Origin: a virus
Lineage: Duplodnaviria > Heunggongvirae > Uroviricota > Caudoviricetes
Virus record (IMG/VR): IMGVR_UViG_2778261393_000002
Length of the DNA stretch: 29,964 nucleotides
Strand: one strand, 5' to 3'
The translations under genes were made by a program, and so were the position numbers. Positions 2,200 to 29,420 of the stretch are shown piece by piece (position 1 is the stretch's first letter; each line of letters opens with the position of its first letter). The notes under the pieces are model-generated. The model saw only the letters and a list, made by a program, of their open reading frames with translations. It made no database searches and was not told where the DNA came from.

Positions 2200-2466
2200 T
2201 TATTGCTGTTTTGTTTTTTCCGGTTTCCATCCTGGGTGCCAATCGCCACGGATCCACGCCTGAATCTCCGAGAGACGATAGCCAGCGGCACGTTCACCAA
2301 TCTTAATACGTTTTGGGAACTTACCTGTCTTTTCCAGTTTCCAGCGTGTTGAATTTGCCAGCGTAGTAAGTGCCACGCATTCTTTTTCACGAATGACACG
2401 ATCAATATCCGGCATTGCAGTAAAATCTTTTTCATCAACAAGTGAATAAACTGACATATCAAACAA
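2200..2466 (-). CDS. alpA: AlpA-family phage transcriptional regulator, excisionase-like
   Basis: Translation contains DRVIREKECVALTTLANSTRWKLEKTGKFPKRIKIG, typical of AlpA/Vis-type winged-helix proteins. Sits immediately downstream of and overlapping the integrase stop. Exact start uncertain (M1, M4 or M18). Confidence 0.75.
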   Translation of the reverse strand: MFDMSVYSLVDEKDFTAMPDIDRVIREKECVALTTLANSTRWKLEKTGKFPKRIKIGERAAGYRLSEIQAWIRGDWHPGWKPEKTKQQ

Positions 2467-3700
2467 CCTCTTTACTCAGTTCAATAACGTTATTATTAAA
2501 TCCGGCTATCGTGTTAAGGTAATTAACCCACATATTAAGAACCTCAAGTTTTTTCTTTACATGCTTGCTTTTATTATAAACACCCGCCACACCTTTAACT
2601 TTATGACCAAGCAGAAGCTCTACAATATAAGGATCGGCACCCATATCGTTAAGCATTGTTGAAAATGTACGCCTGAAATCATGTATGCACCACAGACCAT
2701 TTACATCATGCCCTAGCCGCCTGCATATCCGGCTTGCTGCTCCTGTTATTGTCGCTCGCTTCAGTGATCTACCGATAACACAATCCCGGTGCTTTGTTTC
2801 CGCATAAAGATTAATAACCCATTGTTTTATTCCATCAGGGACTGGTCTTACAATAACCTCGCCGTTCTTGCTGTGCTCTTTTGGAACTGTCCAAATCCAG
2901 TTTTTTAAATCCCATTCTTCCCAAGTGGATAACCGCGCCTCCTGCTGACGGCAACCAAACACCAGGCAGATAACCATAATTCTTCGGTTATGTATTGATG
3001 AAAGGGTAAGTAAATTGTTGCCATAGGCATAAGACCATACGTCAGCGGCTTCATTAATACTCAGAACACGATCCCTTATGCCTGCTGAACGTCCAACATA
3101 ACTAACGTTAATATCACCGAATGGATCGCAACTAATGTATTGCCTGATACGGCAAAAACGTAACGCCTGTTTAATATCAAGAAAAATAGCACCAGACATA
3201 ACAGGAGCATTTTTTTTAATTCTGTCAAATACAGTAAGCCAGGTATGCAATTTGCACTGTTCTATAGCCATATCTCCGATATATGGAAAAATATGCTTTT
3301 CAAATCTTTTTATTAAATACTCATGCTGCTTTCTGGCTGTCCTGGCGTGATTATCGTACCAGTAAAGCACCGCATCCCTTACAGTTACAGGGCGCATGTT
3401 TTTTTCAGCTACAAGTTTTATTTGTCTGCGAGGATCCAGATTTTCCGCCAGCCATTCACGGCACTGGTCGCGTAATCTCCTGGCGGCTGCCAGAGACATA
3501 TCAGGATAACGCCCAAGGGTCAGCCATACCGGAGGGGCATCCCTGCCGCCAATACGATAGTAAAAAACGAAACTAATTCCCCCAACCACGCTTACACGAA
3601 CAGATAGCCCCCGCCCATCAGCCATGATTTTTTGTCTGTCCTGCGGCTTACCTGCAAGACTTTTCAGAAGTTTGTCAGTCAGTTTATTCTCGATAGCCAT
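2459..3700 (-). CDS. int: Tyrosine integrase, P4-like
   Basis: 413 aa from MAIENKL (start codon 3698-3700). Phage-integrase catalytic region visible (HDFRRTF ... LLGHK ... VYN). Paired with alpA as in P4-family elements. The listed ORF extends 24 codons further upstream to 3772. Confidence 0.85.
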   Translation of the reverse strand: MAIENKLTDKLLKSLAGKPQDRQKIMADGRGLSVRVSVVGGISFVFYYRIGGRDAPPVWLTLGRYPDMSLAAARRLRDQCREWLAENLDPRRQIKLVAEKNMRPVTVRDAVLYWYDNHARTARKQHEYLIKRFEKHIFPYIGDMAIEQCKLHTWLTVFDRIKKNAPVMSGAIFLDIKQALRFCRIRQYISCDPFGDINVSYVGRSAGIRDRVLSINEAADVWSYAYGNNLLTLSSIHNRRIMVICLVFGCRQQEARLSTWEEWDLKNWIWTVPKEHSKNGEVIVRPVPDGIKQWVINLYAETKHRDCVIGRSLKRATITGAASRICRRLGHDVNGLWCIHDFRRTFSTMLNDMGADPYIVELLLGHKVKGVAGVYNKSKHVKKKLEVLNMWVNYLNTIAGFNNNVIELSKEVV

Positions 3701-3718
3701 ATGTAGCCTACACGTCAA

Positions 3719-3772
3719 TTTGCAATACACACCCCATCCAAACGCCAACTTGCAATACACATTGCAATACAC
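3719..3772. repeat. Three direct copies of TTGCAATACAC upstream of the integrase start
   Basis: Copies at 3720-3730, 3750-3760 and 3762-3772. The last two are tandem with a 12-bp period. They lie about 20-70 bp upstream of the int start codon. Confidence 0.6.
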
Positions 3773-3849
3773 AAAACCGCGAAAAACACGAAAGGTAATG
3801 AACGGTCATCATAAATACAAAAAACGACATTCCAGACATATCAAGGGTT

Positions 3850-4716
3850 TTAGTGGAGTTGATGAATGGTGGCGACAACTACGGGGAGATAATAGACATA
3901 AATGGCGCGAACCACCGCCGACTGCAGTTGCGTGGCCTGCAGTGTGTCGAGCATCTTGAGACGCTCCATTACAGAATAAAACTGGTTGGCCCCGCGGGTC
4001 TGCCCGTCTTCCTGTGGCTGAAACACATGGATCATTCCCGGTCGTCCGGAAGGCAGTGTTGCCGTAATTCGTGTCCATTTACTGACACCGTAGCCGGGCC
4101 AGTCATCATCCTGAACATGGTAGGCCAGCGCTTTTCCGTGTCGGTTTATTTCCACCCCGGCACGCATAAAACGATCGCCGGTACCATAACCGGGTGTACT
4201 GACACGCTTCGGGCTGATGGTTTTGAATTTCGTCCGGAATAATGACGTGGATTCCGCATCCCATACGGGCTGGACAAAAATTTCACCGTTAAACGTATGG
4301 ACCCCCACCCCTTCACGAATGAATTCGGTAAACGAACGACGCCCTTCCACATCCATCGTACCAAACACCGGATCGCAGTATTCCATCCACGCCGCCTCAA
4401 CATCTTCAATAAAAGCATGTGAATCTGCTTCCGACATCCCCAGCCAGCGCCAGTTGGGACGGTAACTCAGACGAAACATGTGCCCGACAATATGATCCTT
4501 ATGAATTTCCACTGCATTCGATGCAATACCGTTGTTACGGACCAGCTCATCCGCGCGGGCGTTACCCAGATGAATGGAAGGTAAGAGCGCCACGTCGGCA
4601 CTTTCCGGTGCAGGCAGCCATTCTGCCATTTGCCCACCGAACCCGGAACCACCACCAGAATATCCCATGCTTTGCCGTAAAGGCTGCCCATGAATATCCA
4701 CCAGTTCCCCGTTCAC
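3850..4716 (-). pseudogene. B: Lambda-like portal protein (gpB), N-terminal fragment only
   Basis: 288-aa ORF co-linear with the lambda gpB N-terminus as I recall it (YSGGGSGFGGQ, LLP..GNARADELVRNNG, LFRTKFKTISPKRVSTP, IHVFQPQEDGQTRGANQFYSVMERLKMLDTLQATQLQSA). Similarity ends near residue 271 (about nt 3900). Lambda gpB is about 533 aa, so the C-terminal half is missing. Confidence 0.8.
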
Positions 4717-4925
4717 AGCCCCACTCCTGCCGGGCCACGACGCCGTCCGGATACACCCAGCGCACTTTCCAGCTCTTCAATATACTGACGCAGTTCACCA
4801 ATTGTCGCCCGCGAATACTGAACCTGACGCCCGTCCTTGCTGACGGAAACCACAGCACGTCCGATCATCAGTTCATGTAACGCCCGGCGGGCATCGCATA
4901 GCATTTCATGCGTATAAATCATCAC
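4713..4925 (-). CDS. W: Head-tail joining protein, lambda gpW-like
   Basis: 70 aa. ARRALHELMIGRAVVSVSKDGRQVQYSRATIGELRQYIEELE ... RRRGPAG matches the lambda gpW pattern. Position between terminase large subunit and portal as in lambda. Confidence 0.75.
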   Translation of the reverse strand: MMIYTHEMLCDARRALHELMIGRAVVSVSKDGRQVQYSRATIGELRQYIEELESALGVSGRRRGPAGVGL

Positions 4926-6845
4926 TTATCCTCCACTCAGAGCAGCCGCGATTTCTTCAATAGTCATTTCATCGTCGTCCTGTTCATCTCTTCTGGCGCG
5001 GGCCAGTGCATCCAGATCCAGTTGCCACCGCTGAACGGAAATGCGCAGCGCTGCATAGGCATACACCAGACAGTCCAGAGCTTCATTACGCCGTTTTCTG
5101 GCATCCCACTGGAGTTTCACCCGCCCGTTCACAACTTTTTCAACCAGCTCTTCTGCCACGAGTTGTTTAGCTTCAACATCAGAAAAAATGTCCGGGTTAT
5201 CCGGAAAACGGAAGGTATACGGTGCGACTTCACTGGCAGATACCACCGGCAGGGCAAAACGCGCATACAGCATTTCCTTGACGGTATCGGAACCCACCTC
5301 ACACAAAAACACCCCACGCTGGTTTCGCTTTTTTGGCATGGTGATCACCGGCTTGCCGTACACCGACGCCCCTTTGATGGGGAGCACAAAAAAAGTGCCG
5401 TGTTTTCTGGATCGCTGATACACAATGTCCTGGTCAATACCACCGGTATCCCAGCAGACGCGGGAAATGGAAATTTCAGTGCCATCTGCATGACGGTATT
5501 TTTTCCGGATCACGGCATCAACGCGTTTAAGGGTGTCCTCATCTTCCGGTCTCCCCATGATGATCTGCTTGTCAATCAGAAAAGCTTCTTCGCCAGGAGC
5601 CCAGCCCCAGACATAAATCTCATAACGGTTTTTCTGAGAGTCGATCCCTGCGGTCAGGTAAACCACCCGCAGGGGAACCTGCGCATCATAGTGGCAGACT
5701 TTTTCCAGCAATAACTCAAAGCTCAGTTTTTCTGCCACAGCCTCTTCATAAGGCTCCCCCAGCGTGGTGTTAATGAACGTCTTGACGCCATTCGGATCCT
5801 TCAGTGCATCAAGCCAGTCATAAACAATCTGTACCCAGGTGGTGAACGGGCTGTATGCCGTCCAGATGTGGTACGAGATTGAGCGCGGTGGCGGGATTTC
5901 CTCATCACCGGCGCTGTAAAATGTCAGACCGTCACGCGTCCACATCCCGGTATTGTCACAAATCCACCGCCCGTCGGTCTGGTCAAGTTCCGACTGACGG
6001 ATCGCGCAGCCATTATGTTCACACAGGTAATACACCGTCTCCGGCTTGCCCTTCTCCCATTTCAGGCCAAAGGTTGTCGCATCATCGCCAAACTTCAGAT
6101 ACTGGGCTTCACCACAATGAGGGCATGGCACATAAAACCGCATAAAATGTGCAGATTCGTTCGCGGCTTTTTCAATCTGGCAAAAACCTTTAATTTTGGG
6201 CGTTGAGCCGCGTATGGATTTAGGCCATACCGAACCTTCGATACGCTTATCGCCAAGCAGAGTTGGTGAACCTTCTTTTTCCACATCCGGTTCAAACGAG
6301 GAGAGTTCGTCATAGCAGACCACATCCACAGATTTTTCACGGTAGTTTTTGGCAGCAGCTCCGCCCAGACACCAGAATCCCACACCGGAGGAGAAACGTT
6401 TCAGGGTAAGCGTGTTGTCCCGATGTTTTCTGCCAAACCACGGAGCCAGCTCCAGTAATACAGGAACGTCTCTTATCGTTGGTTCGACATGGGATTTCAT
6501 AAAATCTTCTGCCGCAGAATCTGTCGGCTGAAAAAGCAGGCTGTTACGGGATTTGTGTTCAATAAAATAAGCCTCCACCCCCAACAGCATTTTGGTGTAA
6601 CCAACACGCGCCGATTTAATCAGATTAACGGTGCGGATCCGGTCATTCCCCATGCTGTTCATGATGGCAACCTGAAACGGCAGTGTTTCCCATTGCCCGG
6701 GAGTATATGAAGACTCTTTTGGCAGATAATAATGCTGATCAGCCCACTGAACTGTCGTCAGTGGTACCGGAATATTGAGAGATACAAGCCCTGTTGCTAT
6801 CGCACCGGCTGCATTAGCTGCCTTCTGTGCGTCTGAAATCATCAA
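4926..6845 (-). CDS. A: Terminase large subunit, lambda gpA-like
   Basis: 639 aa, co-linear with lambda gpA along the whole length ([94 protein letters not shown]). Confidence 0.95.
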
Positions 6846-7362
6846 TCCACCCGCCTACGTTCTCACCAGCTTTAGCTGCAACGTTGGAGGCTTTTGCGAT
6901 TTCAGTTTTCACCACATCAAGGTGTGACGGTGAAATATCCGGATATTTACGCTGTAATGTCAGCGGCACACGTACAAGTATCCCCGAAATCTCCTGTGCC
7001 ACACGTTGCAGAATGAAGGTAAACAATTCCGTTTCCAGTACCAGCCCTTCTTCGCGGGCATTTTTCAGTTCCTGTGCATCAGCCTGTGCTTTTGTGAGTC
7101 GGTAGCGCTCATAGTCAATGGTGCCGGGTTGTAAATCTGATTCCGCAGCCGCACGCAAATCCTCGGTCTCTTTGCGGAGTTTTTCGTTTTCAATATCGGC
7201 TTCGCGCTGCGCATACCACTGAATTGCCATGGCGGTATCAAATACAGATTCAACCCCCTTACTACCACCAGAGACACAAGAGAGCCCCTGAGACTGCCAG
7301 CGTTCAATCGTTCGTGGATCCACGTTGAAAATTTCCGCGAGCTTCTTTTTATTAACCTTCAT
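6814..7362 (-). CDS. nu1: Terminase small subunit, lambda Nu1-like
   Basis: Start taken at [12 protein letters not shown] (codon 7360-7362), matching the lambda Nu1 N-terminus MEVNKKQLADIF. Conserved stretch [27 protein letters not shown]. The 3' end overlaps the terminase large-subunit start. Confidence 0.9.
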
Positions 7363-7387
7363 AAAACATTTCCATATCAAATGCAGG

Positions 7388-7440
7388 GTCCGACATGGAA
7401 GTGCTCAAAAACGTCTTTTTCGGGCACTTTCATGTCGGAC
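7388..7440. repeat. 53-bp palindrome between cos and the Nu1 start
   Basis: Perfect 10-bp arms GTCCGACATG (7388-7397) and CATGTCGGAC (7431-7440) with partly self-complementary interior. Lies in the cosB-equivalent region. Confidence 0.6.
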
Positions 7441-7500
7441 CTTTTACGGATGTGATTGATGAAAAAACAATGAGTTATACACGAGAAGTACCGACACGCT

Positions 7501-7560
7501 TTTTCCCGAAAAATTTTCATAAATAGCGAAAATCCGCGCCGCTGCCGCCCCGTGGCAGAC
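7501..7560 (-). other. Cohesive end site (cosN/cosB-like)
   Basis: Minus-strand sequence GGGGCGGCAGCGGCGCGGATTTTCGCTATTTATGAAAATTTTTCGGG closely matches the lambda left end GGGCGGCGACCTCGCGGGTTTTCGCTATTTATGAAAATTTTCCGG as recalled. cosN analogue at about 7539-7550, upstream of Nu1. Confidence 0.75.
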
Positions 7561-7905
7561 CACCCCACCGGAAGGACCCGTACAAATAGAGTTATTATTA
7601 ATTACATTTACAGTAGGAATGATGTACATCATTGAAACACCATTCAGTCATATACCGACAGCATTCGGTGTTGCACTTCATAACTCTGCGACTACGGTTA
7701 TAAAAGCATTGGCTACTTTTGCCACCGGCAAATCTTCAATGGATTTCCCCTGCCGGTTTTTTATTTTCATCGATGCATAACATTGCTTTTACATCAATAG
7801 CAGCTATTGTCAGTAGTATGTTGTATCGATGCATGGGTGGTATTGGCGATCTTCGCCGACCGGTTCTGTGTAGCTCCCTATGACCGGTTTTTTTATTTCT
7901 AAGAT

Positions 7906-7940
7906 TATAGAAGTCCTTCACTGTATGAAGGACTTCTATA
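7906..7940. repeat. 35-bp perfect palindrome
   Basis: TATAGAAGTCCTTCA (7906-7920), loop CTGTA, TGAAGGACTTCTATA (7926-7940). 15-bp perfect arms. Preceded by a T-run (7889-7895). Confidence 0.7.
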
Positions 7941-8045
7941 ACGCTTCTTACTTTGTAATTTTCGCACCTTCCGGTAATTCCATAGGTTAAAAAAACCTCA
8001 TAATCTCTGACAATTTGATCCTACCCACGTAATATGGACACAGGC

Positions 8046-8912
8046 CTAAGCGAGGTTCTGGTTTTCAAATTGTTCCGGACTGAGGCCGCCACACCAACTG
8101 TGCCGCCGCCACCGATTGTAATCACATTCGATATAATTAAACACCGTTGCCCGCATTATTTCCCGGCTGATAAAGTGTTCTCCATGGATACATTCCACTT
8201 TCAGCGAATGAAAGAAGCTTTCCACGCAGGCATTATCGTAGCAGCAACCTTTTGCGCTCATACTTCCACGCAGATTATGCCGCTTCAGTTGCGCCTGATA
8301 ATCTGCTGAACAGTACTGGCCTCCACGGTCCGTGTGAACGATAACGTTCCAGGGCCTCTTACGCCGCCACAGCGCCATCTGCAGGGCATCGCAGGCCAGT
8401 TGCGCCGTCATGCGTGGCGACATTGACCAGCCAATAACGGCACGTGACCACAGGTCAATGACCACTGCCAGATACAGCCAGCCTTCATCTGTACGTAAGT
8501 ACGTGATGTCTCCTGCCCACTTCTGGTTCGGGCCACTGGCGTAAAAATCCTGCTCCAACAGATTTTCTGACACAGGCAGGCCGTGTGCGCGGTAGCTGAC
8601 CGGGCTGAACTTCCGGGAGGCCTTTGCCCTCAGTCCCTGACGGCGCAGGCTTGCCGCCACGGTTTTTTCGTTAAAGGGGTAACCCTGAGCACGCAGTTCA
8701 TCCGTCAGGCGTGGGGCACCGTAACGCTGTTTTGACCGGGTAAAAGCCGCGAGGACAACGCTGTCGCAGTGTTGGCGGAACTGCTGACGCGTGCTTATCC
8801 TTGTCCGCCGCTGACACCACGTATACCAGCCGCTGCGGGCCACCCGGAGCACGCGGCACATTGCTTTGATGCTGAACTCAGCCTGATGTTTTTCAATAAA
8901 GACATACTTCAT
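8046..8912 (-). CDS. insF: IS3 transposase OrfB
   Basis: 288 aa with DDE transposase/integrase core (WAGDITYL ... HTDRGGQY ... [11 protein letters not shown]). Matches IS3 InsF as remembered. Confidence 0.95.
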
Positions 8913-9217
8913 TTCAGGCGCTTCGCGAAGTATGTCGCGGCCTTTTGGAGGATAGCCAGCTCTTCATCCCGTTCTGCCAGCTGGCGTTTGAGACGTGCAA
9001 TCTCGGTAGACATCTCCAGTTCACGTTCAGAAGACGTCTGCTGATTTTGCTGTTTACTGCGCCAGTTGTAGAGCTGTGATTCATACAGGCTGAGTTCACG
9101 GGCTGCGGCAGTAACACCGATGCGTTCAGCAAGCTTCAGGGCTTCACTGCGAAATTCAGGCGAATGCTGTTTACGGGGTTTTTTACTGGTTGATACTGTT
9201 TTTGTCATGTGAGTCAC
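8909..9217 (-). CDS. insE: IS3 transposase OrfA (HTH)
   Basis: 102 aa ending in a leucine-zipper-like segment. Its stop overlaps the orfB ATG in the -1 frame, as expected for IS3-family programmed frameshifting. Confidence 0.95.
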
Positions 9218-9370
9218 CTCTGACTGAGAGTTTACTCACTTAGCCGCGTGTCCACTATTGCTGGGTAAGATCAATTATCATCCACACAGGATAAAGACAT
9301 CTGACCAGATTGCAGTATTAAAAGCTCTCATGCAGACTACGCACCCCATATCATATACAAGGTTATACTG

Positions 9371-9781
9371 ATGGCTCAGGTTGCCCTTTTTAAAGAAATA
9401 TTTGATCAAGTGCGGAAAGATTTAAACTGTGACCGATTTTACTCTGAACTAAAACGTCACAATGTCTCACATTACATTTACTATTTAGCCACAGGTAATA
9501 TTCACGTTGTATTGAAAAATGATAACGCAGTGTTAATAAAAGGACTTGAGGAGGTTGTGAATGTTAAATTTCGCAGAGACACGCGACTTATAGAAACTTA
9601 CTCTCATAAGTTGAAATCAAGAGAAATCACATTTCATGAATACAGGGAAAATCTGGCTAAGGCTGGAGTTTTCCGATGGGTTACAAATGTCCATGAACAC
9701 AAAAGGTATTACTATACCTTTGACAACTCATTATTGTTTACCGAAAGCATTCAGAACACGACACAATTTTTTCCACGCTAA
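9371..9781 (+). CDS. DUF1398 / YbcV-like prophage protein
   Basis: 136 aa ([47 protein letters not shown] ...) closely resembles DLP12 YbcV as recalled. Upstream of and co-oriented with bor. Confidence 0.7.
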
Positions 9782-10005
9782 ACCATATCGCCCGGTTTAA
9801 TCCCCCTCACTATCCGGCACTCCCACACAGGAGTTACCAGTCGGTACTGAGGACATAGTTAATCCGGGAATACAATGAAAATACAGCACATCTGGCATAC
9901 TTTAATAAACATTAAAAATATGAGATTTCAACTCATTGTTTAGGTTTTGTTTAAATTTCTACAAATACGATTCAACAACCTTAAAAACACAACGGGAATA
10001 ACACT

Positions 10006-13458: not shown

Positions 13459-13612
13459 AGGATGATCCTTTTTCTATGTGAATCATCACCACTGCTGACG
13501 CCAATCAGTATGGTGGTGAACTGTGCAGGGTTGGCGTAACCGGGAAAAAGGAACCGGCGCGGATCGCTCCGCCCCCACACAGCCCACCATTGAGATGTGA
13601 CAGTGCAAACGA

Positions 13613-13637
13613 CAATAAAAAAGACGCTGGCGCGTCT
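13613..13637 (-). terminator. tR'-like Rho-independent terminator downstream of Q
   Basis: Stem AGACGC (13622-13627) and GCGTCT (13632-13637) with 4-nt loop, then a U-run on the minus strand (plus-strand AATAAAAA 13613-13620). About 95 nt downstream of the Q stop, as expected for a late-promoter leader terminator. Confidence 0.5.
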
Positions 13638-13731
13638 GTTGTCGCCTTTTTCATCCGGGACGCCAATCCCGACGCCAGATTTTGCTGGCGCGTGAGGAAT
13701 ATAGCCCCGGACAATGTGTCTGGTCAAGCTC

Positions 13732-16656: not shown

Positions 16657-16812
16657 TTACTCCTCAGGTTCGTAAGCTGTGAAGACAGCGACCTCCGTCT
16701 GGCCGGTTCGGATTCGTACCTCGCAGAGGTCTTTCCTCGTTACCAGTGCCGTCACAATGACGGTTAAACAGATGACGATCAGGGCGATTAACATCGCCTT
16801 TTGCTGCTTCAT
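16657..16812 (-). CDS. hokD: Hok/Gef-family type I toxin
   Basis: 51 aa MKQQKAMLIALIVICLTVIVTALVTRKDLCEVRIRTGQTEVAVFTAYEPEE with AAGGAG SD, matching HokD/RelF as recalled. An overlapping upstream frame (to 16869) is the mok-like reading frame. Confidence 0.85.
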   Translation of the reverse strand: MKQQKAMLIALIVICLTVIVTALVTRKDLCEVRIRTGQTEVAVFTAYEPEE

Positions 16813-17023
16813 AGCCTGCTTCTCCTTGCCTTTCGGCACGTAAGAGGCTAACCTAGATTTGCCGTTCATAGATTGAGCCTCAGATTAATGTTAAGCGTCT
16901 TGCAGGACGCGTAATGTTAACTGGGGCTTTTCTCTATCTGCCTTTGGTGTTCATGCCTGAGACAGATAGCCTCAAGCACCCGCAGCCATTCTACTTAACT
17001 CCCGTTACCTCGCCAATATAAAA

Positions 17024-17113
17024 TCAATCAGAAAGGCGATCCATAAGAACAACAGCAAGACAATAAATTGCCATTACAGCTGCAATAGCCAGCGCACATT
17101 TGAGAACCAGCAC
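17024..17113 (-). CDS. Candidate small hydrophobic peptide, 29 aa
   Basis: Perfect SD AGGAGG (plus 17119-17124), 5 nt spacer, GTG start (17111-17113). Translation (M)LVLKCALAIAAVMAIYCLAVVLMDRLSD is one transmembrane helix plus a short charged tail. Not in the supplied ORF track because it is under 60 aa. Confidence 0.3.
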   Translation of the reverse strand: MLVLKCALAIAAVMAIYCLAVVLMDRLSD

Positions 17114-17399
17114 GACAACCTCCTGTATTGGACGTACACCAGTCCTGATAAATATGAGGCTGTCTCATCATTGATGAGATACAACTATTGGGTATAGTTT
17201 CTGTGATTTTGTTCTGTAGAAATGGAACACAACAACCAGTCACCACCAGCACTTCTTTAAATACGCCAAGTCCGACGCAAGCTAACCTTCTAGTCCGCTT
17301 TGAGCGAGAAGCGGGCCTTTCGACAACCATATTTAGATGAATAGTGGGCTAGGAATACTTTAGCAATTACATTGCTAATATCAATATAAGTAGTAGATT

Positions 17400-17433
17400 C
17401 AAAAAAAATAAGCCACCTAAAAAGCATGGCTTA
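17400..17433 (-). terminator. Rho-independent terminator ending the AT-rich cargo cassette
   Basis: Stem TAAGCCA (17409-17415) and TGGCTTA (17427-17433), followed on the minus strand by an 8-nt U-run (plus-strand A-run 17401-17408). 13 nt after the stop of the 417-aa ORF. Confidence 0.6.
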
Positions 17434-17445
17434 ATTGCAAATAAA

Positions 17446-18699
17446 TTACATTTTATCAATTTCAGAAATGATCCTATCAATTTCATCAATGCTTGCTTGA
17501 ATTGTTAGATTATTTTTTATTATCTCAAGTAATTCTATTGCTCTTCTTTTGGGCCTTGATGACACCAGTTCTGAATTTGCTCTTTCATTCTCCACGAACA
17601 ACCGTGAGAGAGCCATCAATTGATTACTATTTAACACATCTAAAAATGGTTGAAGTACTAAATGTGCATCAGATCTTCCCCAGTAATTCCCCACCCAAAC
17701 AGTAAGTATTTCTTGATATACATCTTCAAATGCAATAGATGGAACATGAGGTCCAAATTGTATAAGTGCCTTGGCTGCTCTTTCTTCATCATTCCAGCCG
17801 TAAGATGTATCCTTAGCTTTAGCTAGCTGTTTAACCGCATGTCTGTATAAACTTGCCCTAGCAGCATCAGGTATAAATTTCACACCATTAACTTTTACTA
17901 AAGTCTCTAAAATTCTTATTTTTGCTCCTTTATCCTCACTTGTATCCGATTCGGGCTCCAGCATAAATGAGTGATATCTTTCCCCCGCTGTTTTTTTAAG
18001 GTCATCATTAGATCTTTCCCATGCTTGTTCAAACAACTTGCTAGCATTAACATAAGCAGGATTTTCCCCCTTAGTTATTAAATCCAATAAAAATCCAAAT
18101 GTTATTCTTATATCAGCTTGCTTAAATGCTCTTATTTGATCTTTAAGTAAGTCTATGCTCTCAATTGATAGTTCAGATTTTTTTATGGGTTCAAATAATC
18201 CAGATGGCGAATGTCCAGGGTCTGGCATATCAGATTCGAATAAATTCTTCTGGAGCATAAGAGCCAAAGCAAACACATCCTCAGACTCTACTTTACTATC
18301 ACTTGCATGGGCTGGAGAGGCATGGTTTCTCATCCAATTGATCATTTCTAATGATTTTCCAGCTTTCTTATGCAGAACCCCTAATTTGGTGGCTCCACTT
18401 ATTAGCACTAAATCATCTACACCTGACCATCTCTCGTTTATTGTTTCACCATCTTTATCATATTTTTTACGACCACTATCATCCTTTATTGCGGAAAGGA
18501 ATAAGTCTAAACCATAAGCCTCAATTCGCCGCCTAAGATTATGAATGGATGCATTCCATATATCTAAAAGAGCATGATCAGGGAAGCCAGAATCTAACAA
18601 CTTTCTAGCTTGCGAAAGGAATTCTATTTCAGTATTAACTGTTGCAGGAAAATTAGTTGTTGATGGCGAGCTTAATAAAACCGGGAGATTTTTTGACAT
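17446..18699 (-). CDS. Hypothetical protein, 417 aa (cargo gene B, candidate defence effector)
   Basis: Long uninterrupted ORF in an AT-rich segment with SD AAGGAAA upstream. No family recognised. Contains an R-x6-H motif (MRNHASPAH) of the kind seen in HEPN RNases. Confidence 0.8.
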   Translation of the reverse strand: MSKNLPVLLSSPSTTNFPATVNTEIEFLSQARKLLDSGFPDHALLDIWNASIHNLRRRIEAYGLDLFLSAIKDDSGRKKYDKDGETINERWSGVDDLVLISGATKLGVLHKKAGKSLEMINWMRNHASPAHASDSKVESEDVFALALMLQKNLFESDMPDPGHSPSGLFEPIKKSELSIESIDLLKDQIRAFKQADIRITFGFLLDLITKGENPAYVNASKLFEQAWERSNDDLKKTAGERYHSFMLEPESDTSEDKGAKIRILETLVKVNGVKFIPDAARASLYRHAVKQLAKAKDTSYGWNDEERAAKALIQFGPHVPSIAFEDVYQEILTVWVGNYWGRSDAHLVLQPFLDVLNSNQLMALSRLFVENERANSELVSSRPKRRAIELLEIIKNNLTIQASIDEIDRIISEIDKM

Positions 18700-19312
18700 T
18701 GAATTTCCTTTAAGTAAAAATTATAATCTATGTCTTTGTGAACAAATTTACACGATATTGTAACCTTGCAGGTGCAAGAAGTAGTGTTCAAATAAATACG
18801 TGAAGAGAAAAAATCCGCCATGACAAAGCTATACACTATTCCCAATTCTTAAAAAATTCAATATGTTTAAAAAATTAATTTTCAAAACTAGCATCCTAAT
18901 ACTCTAAACACACCTATATACAACTAAGGATATGAACAGTATCCTTTTATAGAAGGAGTCTGATCCCTACAGATTTAGAGATTTTAATGTTTGTTAACTT
19001 CCGCCTATGACACAGAGGTGCTGTTGCAGCCCTAAAAACCTTATGTTTTGTTCAAGTCAGAGCTATACGACGCATCGTCGAATTCAATGCCCAAGCAACG
19101 GATTGTGCTTGCCAGTTTCTTATGGTTCAACAGAGGTTCAATGATTAGTATGCTGTAAAGCAAATCTTCGAGACAAAACTTCTCTACCCCCCATGAAAAA
19201 TTTCGGTTGAATTGCCTGGGTGATGTGTGCCGGATAGCTCCAACTCGAGACTGAAGCATGAAGTCTTTACTATGAAAATTAGCAGACTGTATACGCAGCC
19301 TGCTAGTTTATG

Positions 19313-20434
19313 TTAGAGCTTATAAAGTTCAATTAATCTGGATTTTTCTCTGTCAAATTCTTCATCAAGATTTGAGAAGTCTGGAAGTGTAACCATTAAA
19401 TCCTTAAGTTGATGAATAACATTCCAGACATCGTAATGAATAAAGGGATTTAAGCCAATTACATTCCCCTCATCATTATTTTTAGATTTCCCTACACCAC
19501 ACAATTTGATGAATTTGTTGATTGCAGTTGTTTCATTCCAGTCCGAGACAAAAAGAAGCAAGGCAGATACAGCCAAAAGGGGGTTATTTTTTTTAACAGC
19601 GGATATACCCCTGATTTTCCTAAAAAGAAATTCGTGATGCCTGGTTATTTTTTGTGCAACTCTTATCGTTGCTTCATATTTTTCTTTAAGCAACCTTCTA
19701 TCATAAACCTGATAACCTCGATCTCGTGCTACTAATCGATGTGCTTGTTTAGTAAATGTGGTACTATTCACAAGATTATAGAAAACAGAATTATTTTCAT
19801 TAGTCATGTCGATCATCAATGATGGATATTTGAATCTTAACGAACGATACACTTCATCGTTTATATCAAACCAGGATTTATTTTTCCTCTCTTCATCTAC
19901 AATATATTTACTTTCTCCCTTACGGGAATACATGCTGGCCCTTATTAGATTGATCATGTGAGGGCTATAGTTAACAGAAAAAGTGCCTGACTGGCGTAAT
20001 TCTGTAAACCATTGCCGCATGTTTCGAATATCTTCCTGATTGAACTCATCATGTTCAATACCTCTACATACAAGCTCGCGAATTATACTTGTAATCTCAG
20101 AACCTGAGGTGCCGAATTTTATAAAACCATCCCTTGATGAATCTATTTGCTTATCATTACCACTGTAATGATCGCAAAATACTTTGTGTGCATCAGTTCC
20201 GTCTTTTGTTCTAAACGAAAAATGAGATTGGCTGACTATCTTATTTGTTCTTTTCGAATAACCTTCTGAAACAACAATCGCACCGCTTACATTGCAAATT
20301 GGGCACTCTGCATCAAAGGCAACAAATTCCTTGAAATCACTGAAATTGAGTGCGTTATCTGATGAGTAATGGTTTAACAATTGAACCATGTCCAATTCCT
20401 TTTTGAATGTACGAGAATAGACCGTAATTGCCAT
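19313..20434 (-). CDS. Hypothetical protein, 373 aa (cargo gene A)
   Basis: Start taken at MAITVYS (codon 20432-20434) with SD AAGGGAG 7 nt upstream. No family recognised. N-terminal Cys/His cluster (ECPICNVSG ... HKVFCDHY). Confidence 0.8.
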   Translation of the reverse strand: MAITVYSRTFKKELDMVQLLNHYSSDNALNFSDFKEFVAFDAECPICNVSGAIVVSEGYSKRTNKIVSQSHFSFRTKDGTDAHKVFCDHYSGNDKQIDSSRDGFIKFGTSGSEITSIIRELVCRGIEHDEFNQEDIRNMRQWFTELRQSGTFSVNYSPHMINLIRASMYSRKGESKYIVDEERKNKSWFDINDEVYRSLRFKYPSLMIDMTNENNSVFYNLVNSTTFTKQAHRLVARDRGYQVYDRRLLKEKYEATIRVAQKITRHHEFLFRKIRGISAVKKNNPLLAVSALLLFVSDWNETTAINKFIKLCGVGKSKNNDEGNVIGLNPFIHYDVWNVIHQLKDLMVTLPDFSNLDEEFDREKSRLIELYKL

Positions 20435-20635
20435 TTGAACTCCCTTCATCATAATTTTGGTTGTATGAAATATTATCGCATAAAGATACTAATGAGCCAG
20501 TAATATAACTAGAAACGACTTTTTGTGGTTCAGCGAACTAGACGTCCGCTCCTGGCACAAAGCGGACAACCACGCTAGCTCTACCCTGTGCCACAAAATG
20601 TCAATTTGCATCTGAACTAATGCACTTTAATCTCG

Positions 20636-21058
20636 TCACTTCAATAAATACCGAACATCACCCTGATAAAACGACAATATGCGCTGCATAACTTCACTCT
20701 TCCGGCACTCGCGACAGATTATGTTCTGACGCCTGTCGTAGCGACGTATTTCTCCGTCAGGTAATGACCAGATAAGGTCCGGATCAACCGCAGATGGTTT
20801 CTTCAGCTTTGCCCTTGAGAGCTTTTTACGGGCATTTTGCCAGTCCTTACGCGCCTGTTCAGACGGGAATAACCCGTAACCAGAGTTGTATACATCGCCG
20901 CTGGCAACCAGCTCTCTTGCGAGAACGCTCATCAGATATCTTGTCGCACCTGTCTTGACTTCCAGTTGCCGTAACGTCTCACGCCCACTCTGGCGTACGA
21001 GTTCAACAACCTGTCCTTTAATTTTTTCCCGCTCTTCTTGTGTAAAAACTTTTGCCAC
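20636..21058 (-). CDS. Hypothetical prophage protein, 140 aa
   Basis: Basic protein with a C-terminal CxxC-like segment (IICRECRK), immediately downstream of the replication gene. Family not recognised. Confidence 0.55.
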   Translation of the reverse strand: MAKVFTQEEREKIKGQVVELVRQSGRETLRQLEVKTGATRYLMSVLARELVASGDVYNSGYGLFPSEQARKDWQNARKKLSRAKLKKPSAVDPDLIWSLPDGEIRRYDRRQNIICRECRKSEVMQRILSFYQGDVRYLLK

Positions 21059-28063: not shown

Positions 28064-28333
28064 ATGAGCGAACAGTACCTGATAACGCTCGATGAGTGGA
28101 AACCCAAACGGTTCAGTCTCCCAATAACAAACACTACCCTGGTGAAATACGGAAAACTTGGATACATCGTACCAAGACCACAAAAAATTCGTGGACGTTG
28201 GCTGATAGATCGCCGGGCAGTATTTGTTGGACCTGGTGAAACGGGAATTGCGCCGGAAATTCATACTGGCGATGATGATGCACTGAAGGAGATTTTAACT
28301 CATGTCACCGAGGCCACGAAAAAACAGCACTGA
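28064..28333 (+). CDS. xis: Excisionase
   Basis: 89 aa from MSEQYLITLDEWKPKRF (ATG 28064, SD GGAG 8 nt upstream). Overlaps the int start, typical xis-int arrangement. Confidence 0.7.
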   Translation: MSEQYLITLDEWKPKRFSLPITNTTLVKYGKLGYIVPRPQKIRGRWLIDRRAVFVGPGETGIAPEIHTGDDDALKEILTHVTEATKKQH

Positions 28334-29420
28334 CGTAGCCGGTCTTTACGAAAAGTTTGATCGCAGAACTGGCAGAGTTTACTACCAGTATAAAAACCCT
28401 GTGACTGGAAAATTTCACGGACTCGGAACAGACAAAGGCAAAGCTGAAAGAATCGCTTCCACAGCCAATCAGCGAATAGCTGCAGCAGAAGCCGAATATT
28501 TCATGCGCAAAATTGATGAAAGTCCATCAGCAACAAAACGTCGGGGTATCAGATTAAAGGCATGGGTTGATCGATATCTGAAAATACAGGACACGCGACT
28601 GAAAAATGGAGATATTGCAGCTACAACTCACAAAGAAAAAACTCGAATGGCTGCATACCTGGTTTCCCGTCTGGGAAACCACCCATTGAAAGAACTGGAA
28701 GTAAGAGACTTTGCATTAATACTGGATGAGTGGCTGGATAAAGACATGGTCAGCACAGCGAGAGTAAATCGTGGATTATGGGTTGATATTTATAAAGAAG
28801 CACAGCATGCAGGGGAAGTTCCTCCTGGATGGAATCCTCCGGAGGCTACCCGTAAACCGATCCCTAAAGTAACCAGAGCCAGACTCACCCTGGAAGACTG
28901 GCAAAAAATTTACAACGCAACGCCTGAAAAACACTTTATCCGTAACGCAATGCTTCTTGCGATTGTTACTGGTCAGCGCCGTGATGACATTTGCCATATG
29001 CGTTTTTCAGATGTGTGGAACGAACACCTGCATATTACCCAGGGAAAAACTGGAATGCGTCTGGCGTTACCGCTGACGCTACGCTGTGATGCCATTGGGA
29101 TATCGCTAAAAGAAGTGATTGATGGATGCAGGGACAGAATATTGAGTCCATACCTGATTCATAGTCGGCACCAAAAACAACCAAAACCAATGAGTAAAGA
29201 CAACCTGAGCGATTACTTTGCCAAAGCGCGGGAGCTGGCTGGAATAATTCCACCAGCAGGAAAAACTCCGCCAACATTTCATGAACAACGTTCTCTATCA
29301 GAACGGCTGTACCGTGCACAGGGTATCGATACAAAAACATTACTGGGACATAAAGTCCAGGCAACCACCGATCGTTATAACGATACTCGTGGTCAGGAAT
29401 GGGTTAAATTGGTTGTTTGA
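28302..29420 (+). CDS. int: Lambda-type tyrosine integrase
   Basis: 372 aa, co-linear with lambda Int as recalled (LAIVTGQRRDDICHMRFSDV, EQRSLSERLY, LLGHK, RYNDTRGQEW). Confidence 0.9.
   Translation: MSPRPRKNSTDVAGLYEKFDRRTGRVYYQYKNPVTGKFHGLGTDKGKAERIASTANQRIAAAEAEYFMRKIDESPSATKRRGIRLKAWVDRYLKIQDTRLKNGDIAATTHKEKTRMAAYLVSRLGNHPLKELEVRDFALILDEWLDKDMVSTARVNRGLWVDIYKEAQHAGEVPPGWNPPEATRKPIPKVTRARLTLEDWQKIYNATPEKHFIRNAMLLAIVTGQRRDDICHMRFSDVWNEHLHITQGKTGMRLALPLTLRCDAIGISLKEVIDGCRDRILSPYLIHSRHQKQPKPMSKDNLSDYFAKARELAGIIPPAGKTPPTFHEQRSLSERLYRAQGIDTKTLLGHKVQATTDRYNDTRGQEWVKLVV

Follow-up and report, generated by a model that had tools for sequence, protein, structure and literature searches.

The 613-bp gap between two cargo genes of a Qin-like prophage is probably a seam between cassettes of a site-specific recombination array

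The DNA analysed here, 29,964 nucleotides of the virus record IMGVR_UViG_2778261393_000002 and called the window throughout, is a defective lambdoid prophage of the Qin type from Escherichia coli. Between its DUF977 gene and its hok/sok locus lies a low-GC island (approximately 36% GC, against 46% for the window, mean 46.4%) carrying two minus-strand open reading frames (ORFs), here named geneA and geneB, and the spacer that separates them is our subject. Neither gene matched a Pfam, NCBIfam or PADLOC family. An earlier sequence-only reading had reported a gap of 613 bp, which proved exact (18700-19312). It had also called the gap AT-rich, and this holds for the part adjoining geneB (18700-18996, 28.6% GC) but not for the whole spacer, whose 36.4% GC is close to that of the two genes (35.3% and 36.2%); a recombinase gene fragment and a recombination-site region within it reach 42% and 49%, respectively. 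Read on the minus strand from geneA towards geneB, the spacer appears to be a composite scar, in which a terminator is followed by what is left of a dead recombinase gene, then by a decayed recombination site and finally by the leader that precedes geneB in its cassette (Table 1).

Table 1. Features of the spacer, of the surrounding cassette array and of the prophage, in window coordinates.
Feature	Position	Strand	Remarks
A site, upstream array boundary	20544-20567	-	GTCCGCTTT-GTGCCA-GGAGCGGAC (GTCCGCTTTGTGCCAGGAGCGGAC); homology break point in four genomic contexts
geneA, 379 aa	19313-20452	-	PHROG 12525 (unknown function); cargo of upstream cassette
Stem-loop after geneA stop	19280-19305	-	10-bp stem, 6-nt loop, AUUUUC tail; probable intrinsic terminator of geneA
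Tyrosine recombinase pseudogene, 3' part (approximately codons 99-200 of 200)	19041-19297	-	Found by tblastn and blastn
Decayed post-recombinase hairpin	19013-19034	-	TAGGGCTGC-AACA-GCACCTCTG; intact form CAGGGCTGC-AACA-GCAGCCCTG
Core half of A-type recombination site, decayed	18997-19014	-	TGTGTCATAGGCGGAAGT; live form TGTGCCAGGAGCGGACGT or TGTGCCATAAGCGGAAGT
geneB cassette leader, approximately 296 nt	18700-18996	-	28.6% GC; read from sequence
Perfect -10, TATAAT	18725-18720	-	In geneB leader
Shine-Dalgarno, AAGGA	18710-18706	-	In geneB leader
geneB, 417 aa	17446-18699	-	PHROG 27609; cargo of downstream cassette; N-terminal HEPN-like fold (predicted)
Stem-loop followed by U8 after geneB	17401-17433	-	Probable geneB terminator; dG -9.9, z -2.0
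B site, downstream array boundary	17293-17316	-	GCCCGCTTC-TCGCTC-AAAGCGGAC (GCCCGCTTCTCGCTCAAAGCGGAC); homology break point with strain M1 and Providencia
DUF977 gene	20636-21058		Prophage gene
sok (hok/sok)	16807-16981	-	Rfam at gathering score; adjoins cassette array
C4 antisense RNA, its a1/b1 target, isrK	13509-13704	-	Rfam at gathering score
Lambda-type integrase	28302-29420	+	Right end of window

Comparison of the spacer by blastn with 5426 complete E. coli genomes recovered approximately 830 genes annotated as site-specific integrase, all of them over spacer positions 292-593 (window 18991-19292). The intact recombinases have 200 aa, hardly more than a Phage_integrase catalytic domain, and match Pfam PF00589 (Phage_integrase) with E-values of 2e-17 to 5e-19. 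The fragment in the spacer had no Pfam match; in tblastn, residues 100-191 of the intact recombinases aligned to window 19292-19071 on the minus strand (E 2e-24), a significant homology to members of the PF00589 family. An 18-residue gap in this alignment over THSMRRTKPYLIYKKTKN, with an in-frame deletion of 54 nt at approximately 19149/19150, takes out the His-x-x-Arg box (HSMRR). The catalytic tyrosine is replaced by cysteine (RYLG to RCLG) and the N-terminal 98 codons are absent, which leaves the fragment short of the complete catalytic set (Arg, His-x-x-Arg, Tyr) in an intact frame. Since both the His-x-x-Arg box and the catalytic tyrosine are lost, we consider the fragment dead. Compared with an intact copy, it shows a non-synonymous divergence (pN) of 0.22 at a synonymous divergence (pS) of 0.39; intact homologues have a pN of 0.10-0.18 at a pS of 0.8-0.9, which is saturated, and this relative excess of pN indicates relaxed constraint. 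Furthermore, a copy of the same truncated recombinase in SF-468 is far less decayed, and the window copy would thus be older or evolving freely. We found no solved structure related by sequence to the small recombinase.

The small ORF that the earlier reading suspected of having been missed is present only as a frame of 72 aa (19041-19259) that belongs to this dead fragment, and not as a separate small gene. It is very improbable that this frame still encodes a functional small protein, for instance a DNA-binding or dominant-negative fragment. It is open, begins with ATG and keeps a LLNHKKL..T..R.LG stretch, but the region of the first catalytic arginine is gone along with the other catalytic residues, neither the Pfam search nor the elevated non-synonymous change favours a working protein, and no Shine-Dalgarno is seen ahead of the ATG when the sequence is read. 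The better preserved SF-468 copy likewise points to a window copy that is merely older or freely evolving.

The island that contains the spacer is bracketed by two 24-bp sites, A and B, both on the minus strand. A position weight matrix trained on sites of other genera only, and applied to the 30-kb window with 200 shuffles, gave these as its sole two hits (A site 36.9, against a shuffle maximum of 18.7; B site 29.8, against 18.0). In each, two 9-bp arms enclose a 6-bp centre, which is GTGCCA in A and TCGCTC in B, and the reverse complement of B matches A at approximately 20 of 24 positions. Taken in the direction of the recombinase gene, the window array begins with its A site and ends with its B site. 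The 3.3-kb block thus delimited (17292-20567) is more than 99% identical in approximately 13 complete E. coli genomes and, in strain M1, sits in a tRNA-Ser island unrelated to the prophage. Strain 2018-166 (L006) carries, exactly at the A site of the window, an extra 2.5-kb unit with genes for an SDR oxidoreductase, a WYL regulator and the intact recombinase (WP_024178309). On either side of this unit stand the same 18 nt of A core, TGTGCCAGGAGCGGACGT, a direct repeat of the kind that site-specific insertion classically leaves. In related prophages (L087, L088 and L089) the A and B pair encloses other cargo, namely NUDIX plus HAD hydrolases, approximately 1 kb of unannotated DNA, or 250 bp only.

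A larger block composed of the SDR gene, the WYL regulator, int (the recombinase gene), geneA, the dead int and geneB was also seen outside the prophage (L092, L094 and L099), where its neighbours include a dynamin-like GTPase, or a replicase and AlpA. Because this block recurs there, multi-cassette segments appear to move as units.

Past the stop of the recombinase fragment, the spacer retains, in decayed form, the hairpin and the A-type core that follow intact recombinase copies. A hairpin of varying sequence stands after the int stop codon of intact copies from many taxa (81 distinct flanks, median z -3.3); the window version has a folding free energy (dG) of -10 and a z of 0.19, against -22 and -2.1 for the intact copy in strain 2018-166. 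When four loci were aligned, homology passed the int stop codon, the hairpin CAGGGCTGC-AACA-GCAGCCCTG and the motif TGCCAGGAGCGGACGT and then ended completely, the loci diverging immediately past GCGGA(C/A)GT. The same course, a hairpin after the stop codon and then divergence, was found at 80 loci of other genera, the best of more than 547 loci from a one-genome-per-species collection (recombinase 60-99% identical), which span Enterobacterales, Pseudomonas, Burkholderiales, Alteromonadales and some non-proteobacterial metagenome-assembled genomes; GCCA-RRA-GCGGAC follows the hairpin in about half of them. The core at 18997-19014 marks the boundary between a unit of geneA plus recombinase and the geneB cassette. 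A geneB cassette from Providencia, whose protein is 94% identical, matches 19001-17297 and no other part of the window (84.7% identity over 1732 nt); it has an A-like site at its start and a decayed B-like site at its end. Since this homology begins at 19001, the stretch 18996-18700 is the leader of the geneB cassette, and the DNA upstream of 18997 belongs to another unit. In SF-468, geneA and the int fragment are followed by a different cassette (DUF4365) ending in a B site, so the cargo downstream of the junction has been exchanged.

In strain JMF1 (L096), a copy of IS903B (3615-4668) was observed at the equivalent of window positions 19020-19031, approximately, within the decayed hairpin; both flanking genes are intact.

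At the other end of the spacer, the minus-strand hairpin noticed after the geneA stop is real, although it had been placed three bases off (at 19284-19307) and is larger than described. It folds with a dG of -15.4 kcal/mol (z -4.2; none of 200 shuffles as stable), was terminator-like in our scan and has the sequence features of an intrinsic terminator, with 5 G-C pairs in its stem, the tail ATTTTCATAG and a position 7 nt past the stop codon. Its counterparts in SF-468 (dG -21.3, z -6.7) and in L117 (dG -24.9, z -7.9) are more stable, and in the alignment 97% of cells are paired and two pairs are changed on both sides, with three distinct sequences and an equal score in 110 of 500 shuffles. In L117, a metagenomic geneA homologue (82% identical), a perfect hairpin CTAACAGGCTGC-ATAA-GCAGCCTGTTAG comes after the geneA stop; 60 nt further on is a B site, which 18 nt separate from an A site. 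L117 shows the geneA cassette end in its undeleted form. Because an equivalent hairpin stands there within the geneA cassette, separate from the B site, we regard the window hairpin as the terminator-type hairpin of geneA itself, at which geneA transcription would stop. It resembles other intrinsic terminators in its G+C-containing stem right after the stop codon and its U-rich tail, perhaps also in its compensatory changes, and differs from them in its short U-tract and in a 3' arm that doubles as the point of fusion with the recombinase fragment. In both the window and SF-468 this arm directly abuts recombinase codon 99, approximately, and the sequences of the geneA hairpin and the recombinase are alike at that point (ACAGCCTGTTA and ACAGCTTAGCA).

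Two other roles for this hairpin, that of a recombination core and that of a relic B site, were rejected, since in L117 the hairpin belongs to the geneA cassette and the B site lies well beyond it.

Considering these results together, we interpret the spacer as the seam at which two cassettes, acquired independently of each other, meet in a site-specific recombination array of the defective lambdoid prophage, a reading to which we give a probability of approximately 0.8. In the history that we propose, geneA would end on the minus strand with its own terminator hairpin, and a gene for a small tyrosine recombinase would once have lain between the two cassettes. A single deletion at the short stretch of similar sequence may then have fused the recombinase gene, from about codon 99 on, to the 3' arm of the terminator hairpin, taking with it the B site at the cassette end, the promoter region of the recombinase and its first 98 codons; the remaining fragment would have lost its His-x-x-Arg box and catalytic tyrosine later. 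From 18996 downwards, the geneB cassette would follow, with an AT-rich leader bearing a -10 element and a ribosome-binding site, geneB, a terminator and the terminal B site. The movement of the cassettes themselves would be due to the recombinase, acting by recombination at the 24-bp sites.

The seam reading bears directly on whether geneA and geneB form a pair. We favour the view that they are two independent cassettes which now travel together, and the earlier suggestion of separate transcription units gains indirect support from the terminator-type hairpin after geneA, from the cassette boundary between the genes and from the many genomes in which geneB stands alone. Among 435 geneB homologues found, relatives 57-94% identical occur without geneA from Vibrio to Burkholderia and Cyanobium, including Providencia, Photobacterium and metagenomic islands, and have as neighbours Gabija genes or a TIR-domain gene, or lie within another lambdoid prophage. 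The homologues of geneA are found alone or with a gene for an FRG-domain protein. Moreover, geneA is split or truncated in several genomes in which geneB is intact (L091, L092 and L095). Around distant homologues of either gene, A/B sites were absent except in Providencia, so both genes would predate their capture. As separate cassettes, geneA and geneB each become a candidate by itself, for example for single-gene defence.

Several points weigh against this interpretation. In 27 contigs carrying the identical geneB protein, geneA lies upstream of it in all 10 places listed, which could also reflect a pair working together. The U-tract of the geneA hairpin comprises only four U (AUUUUC), and its covariation, given the few sequences and the shuffle scores above, is not statistically decisive. 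Our scan detected no minus-strand sigma-70 consensus promoter in the spacer, and the TATAAT of the geneB leader has no recognisable -35. Termination at 19280 and a promoter in the geneB leader are predictions only, and that the recombinase acts at A and B is deduced from comparison of loci. Part of this would fit an operon or two-gene system, in which read-through would carry transcription across a long intercistronic spacer and the remains of the recombinase would have no significance: the short U-tract, the lack of a consensus promoter for geneB, and the fact that, across four or more genomic contexts, the 10 listed places share not only geneA but also the same gap of 613 bp. We nevertheless regard an operon as unlikely, given that homologues of each gene occur without the other, that geneA is broken where geneB is intact, that the genes are separated by a cassette boundary and by what is left of a recombination site, and that the IS903B insertion in the spacer is tolerated.

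In Pantoea, 2 nt separate a geneA homologue (55% identical) from the gene of an FRG-domain protein that follows it, and a two-gene system may thus have been the ancestral state.

Within the geneB cassette, we propose that geneB is transcribed from a promoter in its own leader. The leaders of the window and of Providencia are approximately 70% identical and differ by indels of 2, 4 and 10 nt, which argue against a conserved small ORF. The best-kept stretch lies just ahead of the geneB start and comprises TTTGTTnACAA, the -10 element (TATTAT in Providencia) and the Shine-Dalgarno; upstream of more distant geneB homologues, the DNA is unrelated to the window leader. At the far end of the gene, a simple terminator scan made no call at the stem-loop listed in Table 1.

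We did not observe signs of a structured RNA in this region. The leader of approximately 296 nt folds no better than shuffled sequence in either direction (z 0.02 for the sense, minus strand; -1.24 for the antisense, plus strand). No spacer match reached the gathering score in Rfam 15, and at E<=1 the sole hit was a eukaryotic element with 16.7 bits against a threshold of 41. The plus-strand hairpin that had drawn attention to the spacer, AGGATA-TGAACAG-TATCCT followed by TTTA (18927-18945), exists but is weak (dG -7.7, z -1.5; 18 of 200 shuffles as stable), and its 3' arm is lost in the closest homologous leader, that of Providencia (TATCCT to TCTTTA, with no compensation). With a fold at chance level and an unconserved arm, it was discarded as a terminator or small-RNA element, and we consider it a chance inverted repeat within the geneB leader.

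The earlier proposal of a small antisense or regulatory RNA is therefore not borne out by the Rfam searches, by the folding of the leader or by its conservation, which is confined to one close cassette lineage with indels. Such an RNA would, for example, run on the plus strand from promoter-like sites at 18693-18727 to a terminator-like site at 19092-19111, antisense to the leader. Two promoter-like matches (10/12) and one terminator-like site do exist on that strand, and AT-rich DNA acquired horizontally commonly contains spurious promoters. However, two such sites are no excess over the shuffle mean of 2.4. The candidate terminator sits in the decaying recombinase fragment, the weak hairpin just described adds nothing, and the distant geneB homologues have unrelated sequence upstream, all of which makes this RNA quite improbable. 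As an RNA candidate the spacer is ordinary, and its interest lies in the recombinase and the sites around it.

The order of the elements recalls yet another arrangement, fimB/fimE-fimS-fimA, in which a small tyrosine recombinase of approximately 200 aa is followed by some 300 bp and then by a co-oriented gene. By analogy, the region from the recombinase remnant to geneB could be an invertible promoter switch like fimS, locked by the death of the recombinase, and a 9-nt imperfect inverted repeat does occur at 18738-18746 and 18990-18998. We find this hardly credible, as 25 comparable inverted repeats are present within these 800 bp and the distal arm of this one is not conserved in Providencia. 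Furthermore, the full-length E. coli matches listed are in one piece and uninverted, or in two co-linear pieces at the IS903B insertion, and intact loci have different cargo after the recombinase rather than the same segment flipped.

Eleven further Enterobacterales loci show ordered arrays of the form A..B-A..B-int-A..B, with all sites in the orientation of the recombinase gene and, in total, 17 distinct B-N15-18-A junctions. The recombinase gene itself lies in a junction of this kind; 62 nt ahead of its start codon stands a B site. On a Pectobacterium plasmid (L007, 1733-14056), known defence systems are found complete within an array of cassettes bounded by A and B sites: Lit stands alone in a 1-kb cassette (4166-5187; PADLOC E 4e-126) and SIR2-HerA in a cassette directly upstream of B-int (6609-9938; PADLOC E 5e-210 and 9e-226), and the same array also holds a SIR2/ThsA-like gene. 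The recombinase-and-site system is highly conserved and very widely distributed, and it bounds cassettes, known defence systems among them, with precision.

Pseudomonas recombinase loci (L076, L084, L045, L047 and others) show the same layout of a B-like site, int, a hairpin and an A-like site, with shifted sites; GGCCGC arms and the centres CGGCCA and GGGTCG occur, for example, and one such site, AACCGGCCAAAAGCGGAC, stands downstream of the hairpin. Recombinase and sites would accordingly seem to co-evolve.

From these loci we tentatively extend our interpretation, at somewhat less than even odds, to a whole system. The spacer may be the fossil junction of a widespread and seemingly undescribed integron-like system of Proteobacteria, in which a tyrosine recombinase of 200 aa, consisting of the catalytic domain only, lies within a cassette junction (B site, int, hairpin, A site). 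By means of two kinds of 24-bp 9-6-9 site (GTGCCA and TCGCTC), it would capture and stack cassettes 0.6-6 kb long and exchange them between prophages, plasmids and genomic islands. Their cargo is in some cases a whole anti-phage system (Lit, SIR2-HerA) or a candidate for one, as with the HEPN-like geneB. The two types of centre may keep A and B sites from recombining with each other. If correct, this would provide a mechanism for the movement of defence genes between hotspots. Should the recombinase indeed act on the A/B sites, it would offer a concrete mechanism of cassette exchange in prophage and island hotspots, and the sites would supply a sequence signature with which to delimit cargo modules and mine new defence genes.

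Among known systems, integrons come closest in several respects. They share with the loci described here a tyrosine recombinase with an ordered, co-oriented cassette array and imperfect palindromic sites in between, which here are B-N15-18-A composites of approximately 66 nt. Variable cassettes lie beside the recombinase both in the 11 Enterobacterales loci and in the E. coli prophages, the same cassette recurs in different arrays and genera, and the cargo includes complete anti-phage systems. On the other hand, an IntI-type integrase has approximately 320 aa and an IntI-specific insertion, while the small recombinase has 200 aa, scores 17 bits against NCBIfam cut-offs of 265 and 435, and matches the integron-integrase models at E 0.002-0.003 only. 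It consists of the catalytic domain alone and lies inside a B-int-A junction, co-oriented with the array, instead of being divergent at one end. The sites are of two kinds of conserved 24-bp 9-6-9 unit, and appear unlike the attC consensus (R''/L''/L'/R'). In the cassettes there are one to three genes, which may face either way, along with leaders and terminators of their own.

The pdif modules of Acinetobacter plasmids, which are bounded by XerC/XerD sites of alternating orientation, offer a second parallel, and Xer-dependent elements are a related case. As generally described, they too are discrete modules with short arm-centre-arm sites, opposite at the two ends, that occur in many contexts and carry toxin-antitoxin and accessory cargo. 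In contrast to their reliance on the host XerC/XerD, the arrays described here have a dedicated recombinase gene; their sites are 9-6-9 with GTCCGC arms, compared with the 11-6-11 of dif-like sites, and each cassette has its own pair of sites, which places two sites 15-18 nt apart at every junction. The small-recombinase array would seem to work like an integron or a pdif-module system, yet its enzyme does not qualify as an IntI-type integrase.

The recombinase-associated acquired interbacterial defence (rAID-1) arrays of Bacteroidales, reportedly described by Ross et al. 2019, are similar in having a conserved tyrosine recombinase beside an array of small accessory or defence genes, and are said to be integron-like. 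They differ in phylum, recombinase lineage and cargo, which consists of type VI secretion system (T6SS) immunity genes. The FimB/FimE invertases are likewise tyrosine recombinases of approximately 200 aa without an N-terminal core-binding domain, and the small recombinase weakly matches the NCBIfam model for tyrosine-type DNA invertases (E 2e-6, 27.5 bits against a cut-off of 222); the comparative evidence here concerns cassette insertion and exchange, with none for inversion. The A centre with its following base, GTGCCA(G/A), for example at 20553-20558 on the minus strand, resembles GTGCCAA, the 7-bp spacer of the Rci shufflon sfx sites, and we mention this as a lead only. No Rci model was among the NCBIfam matches of the small recombinase. 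A literature search that included the literal site sequences returned no description of the sites or of the system, and the portion consulted of a tyrosine-recombinase classification (PMC8138268) mentions no comparable group. The term rAID-1 itself appears in bioRxiv 10.1101/2025.05.03.651265.

A few observations concern sites elsewhere. In K-12 MG1655 (L118), A- and B-type sites (1645981 and 1646972) flank flxA in Qin, in an orientation opposite to that of the window array; the A site falls within the annotated ydfV ORF, and no small-recombinase homology was detected there. The K-12 gene ydfW/intK was considered as a possible member of the small recombinase family and rejected, as tblastn produced no match. 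In the window, the prophage sequence past the last B site (17250-17292, minus strand) reads TAGAAGGTTAGCTTGC-GTCGGAC-TTGGCG, like a junction spacer plus the 5' arm of an A site (ctcggcttGGTTAGCTT-GTCCGC in the Pectobacterium plasmid array), and may be a decayed terminal junction. A 100-aa ORF on the minus strand (17028-17330) shares sequence with both the B site and the beginning of the hok/sok region; it has no family match and is probably not a gene.

Beyond the island, the window contains further prophage genes, namely those for a RecE-like exonuclease, a cI-like repressor, a replication protein, DUF968, lysozyme and terminase, and an IS3 element. Its left part carries a second integrase, of the P4 type with an Arm-DNA-bind_3 domain, and an IS3-family transposase (2459-3772 and 8046-9217, both on the minus strand). 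With these two beside the lambda-type integrase, the prophage looks composite or degraded.

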